Part shown: positions 22,143 to 42,559 of the stretch, piece by piece
How the letters are laid out: every line of letters begins with the position of its first letter
Numbering within the stretch: the first letter of the stretch is position 1
Sequence record: PV467749.1
Origin: a phage
Direction: 5' to 3' (one strand)
DNA length: 64,000 bases
Notes under the pieces: model-generated
What the model saw: only the letters and a program-made list of their open reading frames with translations
What the model was told of the DNA's origin: nothing
Databases searched by the model: none
Program-made: the position numbers and the translations under genes

Positions 22143-22184
22143 GTATTCATCCTCTCGTCTTGATGAAATAATTATAGCAAAAAG

Positions 22185-22204
22185 GGCTGACCGAAGTCAA
22201 CCCT
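22185..22204 (-). terminator. UUCG-tetraloop hairpin terminator (GGGUUGACUUCGGUCAGCCC on minus strand) fused to extended -10 promoter (attata at 22172-22177 = TATAAT on minus)
   Basis: gggctgaccgaagtcaaccc is flanked by A5 and T6. The minus-strand reading GGGTTGACTtcggtcagccctttttGCTATAAT gives TTGACT-18-TGcTATAAT. Confidence 0.75.
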
Positions 22205-26766: not shown

Positions 26767-26805
26767 GTTTGCCTCCAGTAGTTGATGAAATGATTATAGC
26801 AAAAA

Positions 26806-26825
26806 GGGCCGACCGAAGTCAACCC
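26806..26825 (-). terminator. UUCG-hairpin terminator/promoter module (copy 2)
   Basis: gttgatgaaatgattatagcaaaaagggccgaccgaagtcaaccc tttt. It is near-identical to the element at 22160-22205. Confidence 0.75.
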
Positions 26826-29665: not shown

Positions 29666-29847
29666 GATATCCCTTATTTGGTTTGTTCAACACTAGGTGT
29701 ATTGATATAGGTGTCAATTGAATAACATACTGTACCCACTACAACAGCAGCGATTAGGGCAGTGATGATGAATTTAGTACCTTGCATAATTTAATACCTC
29801 ACGTTGTTTGTATTTTGTATCACTTGATGAAAATATTATACGACAAA

Positions 29848-29867
29848 GGGCTGACTGAAGTCAACCC
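29848..29867 (-). terminator. UUCG-hairpin terminator/promoter module (copy 5, loop variant CUGA)
   Basis: gggctgactgaagtcaacccc. The minus-strand downstream sequence TTTGTCGTATAATATTTTCATC carries a -10. Confidence 0.7.
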
Positions 29868-30259: not shown

Positions 30260-30370
30260 TTCATACTCCTTAAAGAGATAAATTACTTTAATATTTATAC
30301 TTCATGTGCTGTTTATTTCAACAGACACTTAAGATTATATCACATATGAAATGGTTGTTCCAACGTCAAA

Positions 30371-33400: not shown

Positions 33401-33442
33401 AATTAAAATCCCCAGTATTTGATGAAATAATTATAACAAAAA

Positions 33443-33462
33443 AGGCTGACCGAAGTCAACCT
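33443..33462 (-). terminator. UUCG-hairpin terminator/promoter module (copy 6)
   Basis: tttgatgaaataattataacaaaaaaggctgaccgaagtcaacct tt. The stretch 33418-33462 is near-identical to the 22160-22204 module. Confidence 0.75.
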
Positions 33463-39703: not shown

Positions 39704-40498
39704 TTAAATTACATATGGTTTATAGTAATGAATCTCGTTTGATATTGCAGCGAAGACTTTGTTATTAAATCTTTCACCATAATCACGAAGAGATTCACCT
39801 TCTTCGCTTTCAATAAAGTAATTATATACTGGTAGACGTGCGGTGTCAACACCTATAAATGATTTCATGTAAATTTGTACTAAACGATTCATTCCTTCAT
39901 TTAAGCATTGCACCTCAAAGTGCTTGATACCTTTGTCTAAATGTTTGAATGCATTAATGATACCACGTTTAAAATCACGCTGCATAGTACTGAATAGATT
40001 CTCAGGGAACACTGTAATAGGTGACATTGATTTAAGAATGTATGTATCTTTAGCATTCTTAATATACTCAATGAAGCAGTAGTTAACGTCAGGCTCGATA
40101 GAACGATCAGCGTTATGATACCAGTACTTAAACTCACTGTACTCAGCAAACTTATGCTGGCGTAATGCGTTACAATCCTCACACAGTGCAGTCATGTTCT
40201 CTTTATCATTGCCACCCTGGAGACAGTCCAGTACATTATGGTCTAACGTCATGCGTACAAGGCGTTTACCTTTAAGTACATAAGGTCTGAATTTATAACG
40301 GTCTTTAGTACTGTGCTTATGTAAAGTGAATACCACATTGGATTCACCACAACAATCACATTTAAAGCCATCGCGTGACATTACATGAATGAGTTTTCGA
40401 GTATTTGGGCCGAACTCAGATTTAGTAATGTTGCCAACAATTTCTGATGGGTCGTAGTATTTTGAATTCCGGCGAATCAATTCATCTATAGTGCTCAT
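39704..40498 (-). CDS. HNH homing-endonuclease-like protein
   Basis: Cys cluster DGFKCDCCGES and HNH core RMTLDHNVLDCLQGGNDKENMTALCEDCN. The start is placed at the internal Met (MSTIDELIRRN) to avoid an 89-nt overlap. The ORF-track start is 40588. Confidence 0.7.
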   Translation of the reverse strand: MSTIDELIRRNSKYYDPSEIVGNITKSEFGPNTRKLIHVMSRDGFKCDCCGESNVVFTLHKHSTKDRYKFRPYVLKGKRLVRMTLDHNVLDCLQGGNDKENMTALCEDCNALRQHKFAEYSEFKYWYHNADRSIEPDVNYCFIEYIKNAKDTYILKSMSPITVFPENLFSTMQRDFKRGIINAFKHLDKGIKHFEVQCLNEGMNRLVQIYMKSFIGVDTARLPVYNYFIESEEGESLRDYGERFNNKVFAAISNEIHYYKPYVI

Positions 40499-40499
40499 T

Positions 40500-40727
40500 T
40501 TATATTTCTCCAGCAAGACACTCAAAAGTGACTTTTTTAACTTCGATAACTCGTACCAAATAGTATCCATGAAAGAAATTAAAACCAATCATTTGTGATA
40601 ATGCATCTGCTTCAGATTTTGCACGGATACATGATAGATATAGTTCTCGTATATCGCCATCCAACGATGCTTGTTTCTCGTCATTGATAACAATAGAACG
40701 AATCTCAAAACGAACACCATAACTCAT
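40500..40727 (-). CDS. Hypothetical protein
   Basis: 75-aa ORF. Confidence 0.45.
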   Translation of the reverse strand: MSYGVRFEIRSIVINDEKQASLDGDIRELYLSCIRAKSEADALSQMIGFNFFHGYYLVRVIEVKKVTFECLAGEI

Positions 40728-40933
40728 TCTGTTTGTCCAACAATTAGTTTCTCTTTAGTATTACTATTATAACACCACATTAATTCTTCACCAACTGTTC
40801 TAAGTGAAACGCTGTTTACTTGTTCATATGTACTGTCACGTACTGCAATACATTGATTCATTGAATTCATTGGGGTGATTTGTACACCAGATTGTGGTGA
40901 AAGAGCAATAATTAAAAAGATTACTGAATTCAT
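40724..40933 (-). CDS. Small protein with signal-like N-terminus
   Basis: 69-aa ORF. Confidence 0.45.
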   Translation of the reverse strand: MNSVIFLIIALSPQSGVQITPMNSMNQCIAVRDSTYEQVNSVSLRTVGEELMWCYNSNTKEKLIVGQTE

Positions 40934-40979
40934 TAGATATTCCTCGATGGTTAATCATCCATCTCTTCGAGATGTCTGT

Positions 40980-41560
40980 TCGCTTCTAATACTACGTATT
41001 CTACGCGAATGAATCATAACTGTCAAGGACTTTTAATATTGACGGGATTTGAGGAAGGGATTTTTCTTCCCCCCGCACGGAGGGAAATTTGACGCTGATG
41101 GTATCAGAGCTATTGCATTGAAGATTACTCATAACGAGTGCGAAAGCGGGTCATCCTGTTTCTCTCTACTTCAGTTTCATATGACGGTCTACACTTTTAA
41201 ACATAGTGTATCTTCATTAAGTATCTATGCAATCAAATACTTAATGTGAGTACTCAAATTTTGGACGCAACTTTCCTGTACAAAATTCGATAACTCTCCC
41301 TTAGATAATTCGTAAGGTGTTATCCTTATATGTCTATCGAGGAACCACCAGCTATCCTAACGTGGTTCTTTATACAGCCGCATTGCCGTGAGGGGTTCAA
41401 ACTATGCCCACATCTAACGGGTTTCTTTTGCTGTTCGCTACAATGAAAAGCTCATCTATCCTTTACATTTTCAAGTGAAGTAGGGGAAGATTGTCAGTAC
41501 CAGTACTGTCATTGTGATTGTACATAGATCATTGTATCACCATTAATAAATTTGTCCCAT
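40980..41560. ncRNA. Long ORF-free structured region (candidate ncRNA / regulatory element), strand undetermined
   Basis: About 580 nt without a credible ORF, in an otherwise gap-free genome. It contains strong local hairpins (ggaaccaccagctatcctaacgtggttc; ttcttccccccgcacggagggaa). Confidence 0.35.
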
Positions 41561-41566
41561 AAAAAA

Positions 41567-41587
41567 AGGCTGACCGAAGTCAACCCT
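41567..41587 (-). terminator. UUCG-hairpin terminator (copy 7) downstream of sigma-factor gene
   Basis: aaaaaaaggctgaccgaagtcaaccc ttt, immediately 3' of the stop at 41594. Confidence 0.75.
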
Positions 41588-41593
41588 TTAATC

Positions 41594-42559
41594 TTAAAAA
41601 TCTTCGAACTCATAACCTTTTGTCTTAACCATCTTACGCAGTCGTTCCATTGCTTCAGAGTACTTACGGTGCAATGAAGAACGAGCAGTCATGACCTTAC
41701 CCTTCTCATCTTCAAAACCACTCTCAATGATTTCTCGTAGCGTTTCTGGTTCAGAATAAGAACCAATACCATGTACACGTTCAATCAATTCACGGTCTTT
41801 GGCAGATAGGTTACTCATCATTTCTGCAATACTTTGTACCAGTGGGGTACTGACAGTTTCTACGCCTAAGTTGTAATCAGGTTCAACTGAAGTAACAATG
41901 TCAGATAATGTACTTTCTGAATCATTACTCATTTTCATATTCAATGCTACATAAGTGTTATTGTAAGTTAGACAATTCTTAACGTGTTGAATCTCAATAC
42001 CAGTCTCTTTTGACACCATCTCAGGAGTTGGGTATTTACCATGTTTCCTTTGATACTCTTCTACACAACGTTTCACATAAATGTTATTAACACTCATATA
42101 ACGTGGGAAATGCACTAGATAATTAGCATCCGCACTTTCGTTATAGATTGTCATGTACACAGTTGTTGTTGCATATGTAATGAACTTAACATTTTTGGTA
42201 GTGTCGAACGTATGAATTGCTCGCATTAAACCTTCAACACCATAAGAAATCTTATCTTCAAATGGGATAAAACATGTACACTTACGTGCAACACTTACTA
42301 CCATTGGATAGTTGTAGCGAACCAAAAGGTCAATGTTCTTTTCAACGTCAATACCATCACGCACTGCTTGGATGAGCATTTCATTCGTTATCCCTTTAGG
42401 GCGAGTTAAGCTGATACCTGTTTTTGGTTTCTCAAACTTGTGACCGTCATGTTCTTCTTCTTCGACGGAATCAAGAGCCTCTAATACGTTGACTTCTTCA
42501 CTAGCAAAACACTCATCCAGTACTTCTTCAGAAATTGCATTTAAATCAAGCTTTTTCAC
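41594..42559 (-). CDS. Sigma-70 family RNA polymerase sigma factor (phage-encoded)
   Basis: 321 aa. Region-2-like segment KFITYATTTVYMTIYNESADANYLVHFPRYM. Region-4-like HTH LSAKDRELIERVHGIGSYSEPETLREIIE. Confidence 0.7.
   Translation of the reverse strand: MKKLDLNAISEEVLDECFASEEVNVLEALDSVEEEEHDGHKFEKPKTGISLTRPKGITNEMLIQAVRDGIDVEKNIDLLVRYNYPMVVSVARKCTCFIPFEDKISYGVEGLMRAIHTFDTTKNVKFITYATTTVYMTIYNESADANYLVHFPRYMSVNNIYVKRCVEEYQRKHGKYPTPEMVSKETGIEIQHVKNCLTYNNTYVALNMKMSNDSESTLSDIVTSVEPDYNLGVETVSTPLVQSIAEMMSNLSAKDRELIERVHGIGSYSEPETLREIIESGFEDEKGKVMTARSSLHRKYSEAMERLRKMVKTKGYEFEDF

Follow-up and report, generated by a model that had tools for sequence, protein, structure and literature searches.

Positions 40980-41560 of a phage DNA of 64,000 nucleotides (nt; sequence record PV467749.1, the whole of which is called the window below) hold no credible open reading frame (ORF) and probably carry, on the minus strand, the gene for a large, compact noncoding RNA with a core of ~440 nt (at most ~500 nt with a 3' extension), made as a free-standing molecule. 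As comparison of its copies shows, this RNA belongs to a family of ancient paralogs at conserved positions that keeps 17 helices, three pseudoknots among them, by compensatory changes.

The locus and its family of copies

The elements of the locus, all on the minus strand, follow each other in the order sigma-70-like factor, ORF-free stretch, two small phage ORFs and HNH endonuclease:

41594-42559, minus strand: gene of a sigma-70-like factor, with Sigma70_r2/r3 domains (Pfam)
41030-41530, minus strand functional: RNA core within the ORF-free stretch
40980-41029: promoter of the next gene
40933-40724 and 40727-40500, minus strand: two small conserved phage ORFs, each in a small PHROG family
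39704-40498, minus strand: gene of an HNH endonuclease of homing type (264 amino acids, aa; phrog_35175, E = 2.5e-148)

Within 40980-41560, the ORFs of at least 30 aa are four short ones:

41001-41132, minus strand: 43 aa
41049-41249, plus strand: 66 aa
41330-41446, plus strand: 38 aa
41509-41613, minus strand: 34 aa

None of these ORFs (34-66 aa) has a match in Pfam or PHROG, and the flanking genes do match, in agreement with an earlier note, made from the letters of this DNA, that saw no credible gene here.

The stretch is contained in ~60 phage records, being 99-100% identical in Escherichia phages EC.P1 and Ecwhy_1 and 88-97% identical in most other Asteriusvirus coliphages, including 121Q, PBECO4 and phAPEC6 (Rak2-like jumbo phages of ~350 kb). 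In ORF-free gaps of ~600 nt in distant genera the core is still ~70% identical at the DNA level. The distant homologs are:

Mimasvirus: Pectobacterium phage CBB, Cronobacter phage GAP32, Xanthomonas phage XbC2
Eneladusvirus: Serratia phage BF, Yersinia phage fHe-Yen9-04, Erwinia pEa_SNUABM phages
Other phages: Erwinia phage Kaldavass (no genus in its record), Salmonella phage Munch with its relatives, EJP2

Altogether the family ranges over Asteriusvirus, Mimasvirus, Eneladusvirus, Rak2 itself, Munch-like phages and metagenomic relatives. In IMG/VR, two pattern scans made independently gave several copies per genome, and a profile hidden Markov model (HMM) of the family, which separated true from chance matches, found 84 matches, 74 of them full length and 68 unique. 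After filtering with this HMM, none of the bacterial-genome loci from the first pattern was real among the matches listed, at least six of the metagenome loci were, and the other listed matches were GC-rich chance hits. The window is matched exactly once, at 41530..41030 on the minus strand (E = 4e-103).

Rak2-like jumbo phages keep 4-6 copies overall: four in 121Q as in Asteriusvirus genomes generally, ~5 in GAP32, CBB, fHe-Yen9-04, Serratia BF and several metagenomic jumbo phages, and at least two copies of greater divergence in Klebsiella phage Rak2. The four copies stand far apart, each of them on the main coding strand: at 90, 193, 247 and 327 kb in 121Q and at 57, 170, 255 and 307 kb in EC.P1. 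Sequences group by paralog type across genera and the nearest relative lies in the same genome for only one of the 68 copies, which argues that the paralogs are old, have not been homogenised and are each maintained. An all-against-all comparison of neighbouring ORFs showed that each paralog type also keeps its own syntenic neighbours across genera, the HNH gene adjoining the sigma-adjacent copies and one other type only. By these comparisons, the window carries one of four dispersed paralogs belonging to a family that spans the clade.

Fold and strand of the RNA

Thirty copies were aligned in the minus-strand sense (alignment A1). Because RNAalifold on the raw MAFFT alignment gave a partial structure only, helices were assembled from column-pair statistics, written as one structure, and their pairs were counted. 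The resulting structure comprises 17 helices and 99 pairs, including the three pseudoknots (PK-A to PK-C). With the exception of P13, which belongs to the 3' extension described below, its parts are, all on the minus strand:

41089..41525: body of the RNA, ~437 nt, with helices P1-P12 and PK-A, PK-B and PK-C
41515..41508 / 41446..41440: helix P1
41483..41473 / 41463..41456: helix P2
41434..41430 / 41378..41374: helix P3
41420..41417 / 41389..41386: helix P4
41414..41407 / 41395..41390: helix P4a
41368..41363 / 41347..41342: helix P5
41357..41353 / 41307..41303: PK-A
41328..41324 / 41317..41313: helix P6
41296..41248: helix P7
41246..41215: helix P8
41233..41227 / 41118..41112: PK-B
41211..41189: helix P9
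41185..41181 / 41154..41150: PK-C
41173..41169 / 41123..41119: helix P10
41166..41162 / 41146..41142: helix P11
41107..41089: hairpin P12 with box 1 (CGUCAA)

Standard pairs fill 91.6% of the cells, as against 37-42% in a control with the 3' partners slid by 1-3 columns. The number of pairs changing on both sides is 73 (24-32 when slid) and the covariation score is 0.457 (0.06-0.11 when slid). For four of five measures the observed value was reached in 0 of 500 shuffles, and for the fifth, further pair types, in 4 of 500. The compensatory changes that the earlier note had suggested looking for in relatives were thus found across the 30 copies. Helices P3, P10, P11 and PK-C are 100% paired in 30 of 30 sequences, several positions swapping both partners, and P5 ranks with the helices that covary best, each of its six pairs having changed on both sides. 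P5 corresponds to a hairpin quoted in the earlier note, ggaaccac-N13-gtggttc (41341-41368), which is real and conserved, as is the second one quoted there, ttcttccccccgcacggagggaa (41064-41086), which is helix P13.

All three pseudoknots covary. PK-A pairs the loop of P5 with the segment that precedes the invariant UAAGGGAG; PK-B pairs seven of the eight nucleotides of the P8 loop with a segment 3' of P10, using a sequence specific to the paralog type (AUUGUAU/AUACAAU, UUCAUGU/ACAUGAA, GUCGAAU/AUUCGAC or CUGAAUU/AAUUCAG); and PK-C crosses P10 and P11. Insertions and deletions among copies are whole hairpins. In diverged copies that lack P4a, P4 is capped directly by a UUCG tetraloop (CCCGUUCGCGG) or, in Rak2, by a GAAA tetraloop (CCCGAAAGG). 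A conserved module, AAUUUUG-UACAAUAUAGAUCCGUCC-AAAAUUUG, is carried by P7 in some paralog types and by the hairpin that follows P11 (P11a) in others; such transplantation of peripheral modules is known from RNase P RNA and from group I and group II introns.

Judged from these comparisons, the functional strand is the minus strand. Within helices, 191 cells are G-U and 48 are A-C in the minus-strand sense, and the G-U pairs sit mid-helix in the best helices, such as the centre of P11, which is G-U in 15 of 30 sequences and would be an A-C mismatch on the plus strand. Unpaired segments are A-rich in the minus sense, the element is co-oriented with the flanking genes in nearly all loci, and the predicted promoter and terminators fit the minus strand only. 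A 'symmetric' count of G-U against A-C, with helices extended into invariant flanking columns, gave a misleading A-C excess, because A-rich unpaired segments were included, and was replaced by the within-helix counts.

Predicted transcription signals and the 3' extension

The following signals flank the body of the RNA:

41561-41589, minus strand: intrinsic terminator of the sigma gene, AAAGGGUUGAC-UUCG-GUCAGCCUUU with a U-run (fold z = -3.7), which marks the 5' boundary of the RNA unit
41531..41559, minus strand: predicted promoter P1 of the RNA, with a -35-like TGGGACA (41559..41553), a 13-nt spacer and an extended -10 box TGATACAAT (41539..41531)
41030..41088, minus strand: conserved 3' extension with P13 and box 2, beyond the terminator position
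41086..41064, minus strand: P13, an 11-bp C-rich/G6 hairpin with its G-run at 41074..41069
41044..41039, minus strand: CGUCAA of box 2, AAAUCCCGUCAAUAUU
41026..40998, minus strand: RpoD-like promoter P2 (TTGACA-17-TAGAAT), driving 40933..40724 on the minus strand and lying outside the RNA core; it is the best match of the promoter scan (11 of 12 positions)

The earlier note had let the stretch end at a UUCG terminator; the hairpin and its U-run are real, but the terminator is that of the sigma gene and precedes the element on its 5' side. Near-copies of the hairpin occur in the window at 22179, 26801, 27482, 29060, 29845 and 33438, where UUCG/UUCA hairpins form combined terminator-promoter units (22171-22200, 26793-26822, 29835-29864 and 33430-33459 on the minus strand; also 27482 and 29060), with TTGACT within the stem and a TATAAT box following at promoter spacing, e.g. 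AAGGGTTGACTTCGGTCAGCCCTTTTTGCTATAAT. The sigma-gene terminator is of the same hairpin family and has no -10 box.

The promoter scan matched P1 with a TG extension, and the predicted start of the RNA is at ~41523-41525. Among 67 unique copies with upstream sequence, which form the base of all signal counts, an extended -10 box (TGnTAYAHT) lies upstream in 64, and 57 of these 64 also have a -35-like box of TGRRAC or TTGAM type. This promoter type matches the TGAAACG-type class of CBB and GAP32, reported as 'TGAAACG plus TATA' and found there mainly 5' of a region whose genes include some for DNA synthesis (PMC5259590). In the window a promoter of the same type, at 58883..58855 on the minus strand, directly precedes a transfer RNA (tRNA) gene, and further TGRRAC/extended -10 promoters lie at 63617-63645 and 30334-30362 on the minus strand, with a hairpin-like stretch starting after 30334.

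At the other end, a canonical hairpin with a U-run stands between P12 and the next element in 37 of the 67 copies, including the sigma-adjacent ortholog of phage ph0011. In type-D copies the stem of this terminator shares GUCAGA with P12 and box 1, and in other types the terminator is separate or absent. Beyond the terminator position, the G6 hairpin P13 and the second box are kept in all copies. P13 is 96% paired and varies on one side only, its G-run being invariant, and the window has a single occurrence of the G6 motif. The two boxes, of which box 1 is at the 3' side of P12, vary in concert, both reading CGUCAR in most phages and CUUCAAG in Rak2. A promoter homologous to P2, Porf_524, lies just 3' of the CBB copy (PMC5259590 Table S5), and RpoD-like promoters are numerous on the minus strand of the window.

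The copy of Salmonella phage Munch (L010 1248-1930) lies between convergent genes and therefore cannot be a leader; on its 3' side, ~160 nt of further hairpin-rich noncoding sequence are followed by the terminator of the opposing gene. In the type located near DNA methyltransferase and cytidyltransferase genes, a hairpin with U6 stands between the -10 box and helix P1, e.g. TATAATGTATAGGACAGTATGATGTACTGTCCTTTTTT (loci L015, L017, L028, L014, L024, L035, L004, L005 and L047). It resembles an intrinsic terminator placed at the extreme 5' end of the predicted transcript and may terminate the upstream gene, serve as an attenuator or protect the 5' end.

Readings of the element

If the element is a free-standing RNA, as we think probable, transcription would start at the TGRRAC/extended -10 promoter directly after the sigma-gene terminator and in most family members would end at the intrinsic terminator after P12; in the window copy it would probably continue through the G6 hairpin towards the next promoter. 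The product would act as the folded RNA itself, as a ribonucleoprotein scaffold, a decoy or possibly a catalyst, and would be neither an mRNA leader nor a protein gene nor a DNA site. We favour this reading because of the terminators, the separate downstream promoter, the promoter type shared with a tRNA gene and the Munch-type copy. The earlier note had listed a structured noncoding RNA, a replication origin or packaging site, a ribozyme and a heavily decayed gene as candidates. The first was the right one and is strongly supported by covariation, pseudoknots, tetraloop caps and a predicted promoter and terminators of its own; the minus strand, the 5' position of the terminator and the paralog family had not been seen.

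Several points weigh against a free-standing RNA. The promoter, start and ends of the RNA are predictions, and the window copy has no terminator between P12 and the 3' extension, so that the RNA may here be the 5' part of a longer transcript. The 4-6 paralogs are position-specific, each with its G6 hairpin, box 2 and downstream promoter, and such retention would agree with action in cis, or action that depends on position, no less well than with a diffusible RNA. The overlap of the terminator stem with P12 in one paralog type is likewise at odds with a simple diffusible RNA, and the comparison of neighbouring ORFs found no protein family common to the neighbourhoods of all paralog types. Finally, folding the single sequence gives an unremarkable energy for the minus strand (z = -1.4) and a better one for the plus strand (z = -3.1). 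Folding energy being uninformative or contrary, the strand call rests on comparative evidence, and the result speaks against relying on thermodynamics, not against the RNA. Position-specific retention, the constancy of the G6 hairpin, box 2 and promoter, and the overlap of P12 with the terminator are the reasons for keeping a cis-acting element and an origin primer as rivals.

The element matched no known RNA family. All 4227 families of Rfam 15 were searched with cmscan, at gathering score on the window, at E <= 10 on 40700-41800 and at E <= 5 on ten other copies. This Rfam/Infernal scan, which the earlier note had suggested, matched no family: nothing in the RNA region reached gathering score, and the permissive E-values yielded chance-level matches, none of them common to the copies. 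In particular, no covariance model of GOLLD, ROOL, OLE, raiA, RNase P, 6S or the Rfam riboswitch classes matched the window region or, in the permissive scan, the 11 copies, and neither ARAGORN (0 genes in 40800-41800) nor Rfam found a tRNA or transfer-messenger RNA there. Riboswitch-type, mutually exclusive pairing is seen in type-D copies only, and the window copy has no terminator.

The closest likenesses are to other large RNAs of phages. GOLLD and ROOL are encoded near tRNA genes and assemble into multimers. The RNA described here resembles them in its several hundred nt, in its many helices and pseudoknots, in being carried by phages and in apparently forming independent transcription units, but it does not lie next to tRNA genes, has 4-6 ancient paralogs per genome and is found in enterobacterial Rak2-like phages. 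RNA sequencing of the related jumbo phage PA5oct revealed abundant noncoding RNAs of 236-619 nt, among them the highly expressed 451-nt 'putative lncRNA' ncRNA002 (PMC7318152). The latter (L050 952-1402) is similar in size and in its layout of sigma-70-type promoter, ORF-free RNA, terminator and next promoter. The family HMM did not match ncRNA001 or ncRNA002 (L050, L051) and no invariant block is shared, so that by sequence homology to ncRNA002 is neither shown nor excluded. Searches for noncoding RNAs of jumbo phages, Rak2 or Asteriusvirus led to the PA5oct study only, no description was found in the literature searched (most subscription journals lying outside it), and the element is absent from the main text of the CBB, UE-S1 and fEgEco12 genome papers. 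The class appears to be new at the level of RNA families.

Few large RNAs have so many conserved helices, pseudoknots and invariant nucleotides, and those of known function are mostly ribozymes, riboswitches and ribonucleoprotein cores. The architecture is as complex as that of known ribozymes, and a ribozyme, one of the candidates of the earlier note, is neither supported nor excluded. Retention of 4-6 ancient, non-interchangeable copies across a clade of 350-kb phages, whose hosts include E. coli, Salmonella, Klebsiella, Yersinia and Erwinia, implies that the RNA is important to infection. Speculatively, the RNA could represent a new large functional class on which the whole Rak2-like clade depends, either a ribozyme or RNA machine with paralog-specific specificity loops, or the structured primer RNA of a multi-origin replication system, where DNA synthesis would be fired from 4-6 dispersed RNA genes in the direction of transcription. 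It would be easily studied, as the hosts are tractable, the length is ~440 nt and the paralog-specific loop-loop pairings offer handles for mutate-and-rescue experiments. In a phage group with more than 80% of proteins of unknown function, these loci are the first candidate function-bearing noncoding genes.

Among the alternatives, a cis-acting transcriptional element is a possibility that we take seriously without expecting it to hold. Here the nascent RNA from promoter P1 would act on its own transcription complex or transcript, as an antiterminator like HK022 put or EAR or as a processing or stability element, so that polymerases started at P1 would read through the terminator after P12 and those of the downstream operon, and polymerases started at P2 would not. 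In keeping with this, each copy stands at the head of a transcription unit, with a terminator on one side and a promoter on the other, and by position most copies precede the terminators and genes that they would control; the region downstream in the window is dense in terminator-promoter units, and the paralogs are retained position-specifically. Furthermore, only read-through would yield RNA of the conserved G6 hairpin and box 2, which come after the terminator, and the GUCAGA shared by the type-D terminator stem and P12 resembles the expression platform of a riboswitch. The element also shares with put and EAR its place directly 3' of a promoter and upstream of terminator-rich operons, with a terminator right after it in many copies. 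However, known antiterminator RNAs measure 70-120 nt, whereas this RNA has 440 nt and three pseudoknots, is thus 4-6 times larger and shows no sequence relation to them. The Munch-type copy is conserved with no co-oriented gene after it, the downstream genes have promoters of their own, and the terminator overlaps P12 in one paralog type only.

A replication-origin transcript is unlikely. RNA II of ColE1 and the oriF and oriG origin transcripts of T4 are promoter-driven untranslated RNAs that prime replication, and in an analogous manner a persistent RNA-DNA hybrid close to the 3' end of the RNA, at the invariant rG6/dC6, would prime the leading strand, the 4-6 copies being origins. The copies are indeed dispersed, as T4 origins are, co-oriented and fixed in position; the RNA would likewise be promoter-driven, untranslated and of comparable length, with a conserved fold as in RNA II. 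In CBB, promoters of this class were reported 5' of DNA-synthesis genes, and the invariant G6 run, able to anchor such a hybrid and without a second occurrence in the window, stands between two boxes that covary as direct repeats. Against this, 37 of 67 copies have an intrinsic terminator ahead of the G-run, and primer RNAs are not known to adopt a compact pseudoknotted fold. There was no GC-skew turn across 30-52 kb, DnaA boxes were matched at chance level only and not in the RNA region, and tandem iterons were absent from that region, although these tests are weak for T4-like replication. The sole short repeat, AATTCATTG, is 9 bp long and stands three times in tandem at 40847-40872, within the small downstream ORF 40724-40933. 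The replication origin or packaging site named in the earlier note is thus left with no direct support.

An element acting as DNA, such as a packaging or recombination site, an array of protein-binding sites or a set of cruciforms, is very improbable. Helices are by nature complementary on both strands and the plus strand alone folds slightly better, but pseudoknots, tetraloop caps, G-U rather than A-C cells in helices, A-rich unpaired segments and the flanking promoter and terminator all indicate a minus-sense RNA, and the phages have long terminal repeats, with the copies lying away from the genome ends.

Still harder to sustain is the remnant of a mobile element, either an intron of group I or II or an RNA that works with a homing or RNA-guided endonuclease (HEARO/omega-RNA-like), which was considered because an HNH endonuclease gene lies two genes downstream (39704-40498, minus strand). 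The family is multi-copy, and a bona fide group I intron does occur elsewhere in the window, at 56433-56747 on the minus strand (Rfam, 99 bits), but no Rfam intron or HEARO model matched in 11 copies, the flanks are a terminator and a promoter instead of exons, no protein family is common to the neighbourhoods of different copies, and the copies are syntenic across genera rather than variably present. A group I intron (RF00028) was not matched even at E <= 10 in 40700-41800, nor at E <= 5 in the ten other copies, in agreement with the lack of a group I core seen by the earlier note. The element also interrupts no gene, being flanked by promoters and the sigma-gene terminator, and its neighbours differ between copies. 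In size, pseudoknotted core, tetraloop-capped helices, movable peripheral modules and phage setting it resembles group I introns, but the P3-P7-P3'-P8-P7' order is not fitted, as seen by inspection of the inferred pairs: the strands of the RNA follow as PK-C 5', P10 5', P11 5', PK-C 3', P11 3', a hairpin and P10 3'. For HEARO/omega-RNA (IscB, IsrB, TnpB) there was no RF02033 match, and the sole nearby nuclease is the phrog_35175 HNH protein, two genes away. This nuclease has no Pfam match at E <= 0.01; its listed ORF begins upstream at TTG 40588 and overlaps the preceding gene, and the ATG at 40498 fits homologs of 262 aa. The group I intron of the window lies among five tRNA genes on the minus strand (54302-54372, 56081-56153, 56850-56936, 58672-58750 and 58758-58844).

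That the stretch is a protein gene, decayed or frameshifted, or a group of very small ones, as annotated in several GenBank records, can be dismissed with near certainty: short ORFs exist and some records carry 3-5 'hypothetical protein' coding sequences (CDSs) across copies, but no reading frame is conserved (the longest open frame in any of the six frames of 30 homologous copies has 50-128 aa), no family matches, insertions and deletions are whole hairpins, and paired substitutions preserve base pairs and are not codon-like. The heavily decayed gene suggested in the earlier note falls on the same grounds. The CDS calls across RNA copies are probably spurious, and the present analysis would correct several database records that place 3-5 hypothetical proteins on the RNA loci. 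Short 'hypothetical protein' CDSs (2-6) are annotated over RNA copies at all four loci in PV611058, PV654397, OR699181-OR699188, PP886230, PQ330092 and others, while other GenBank records leave the sequence of the copies unannotated and that of UE-S1 labels part of it 'repeat_region'.

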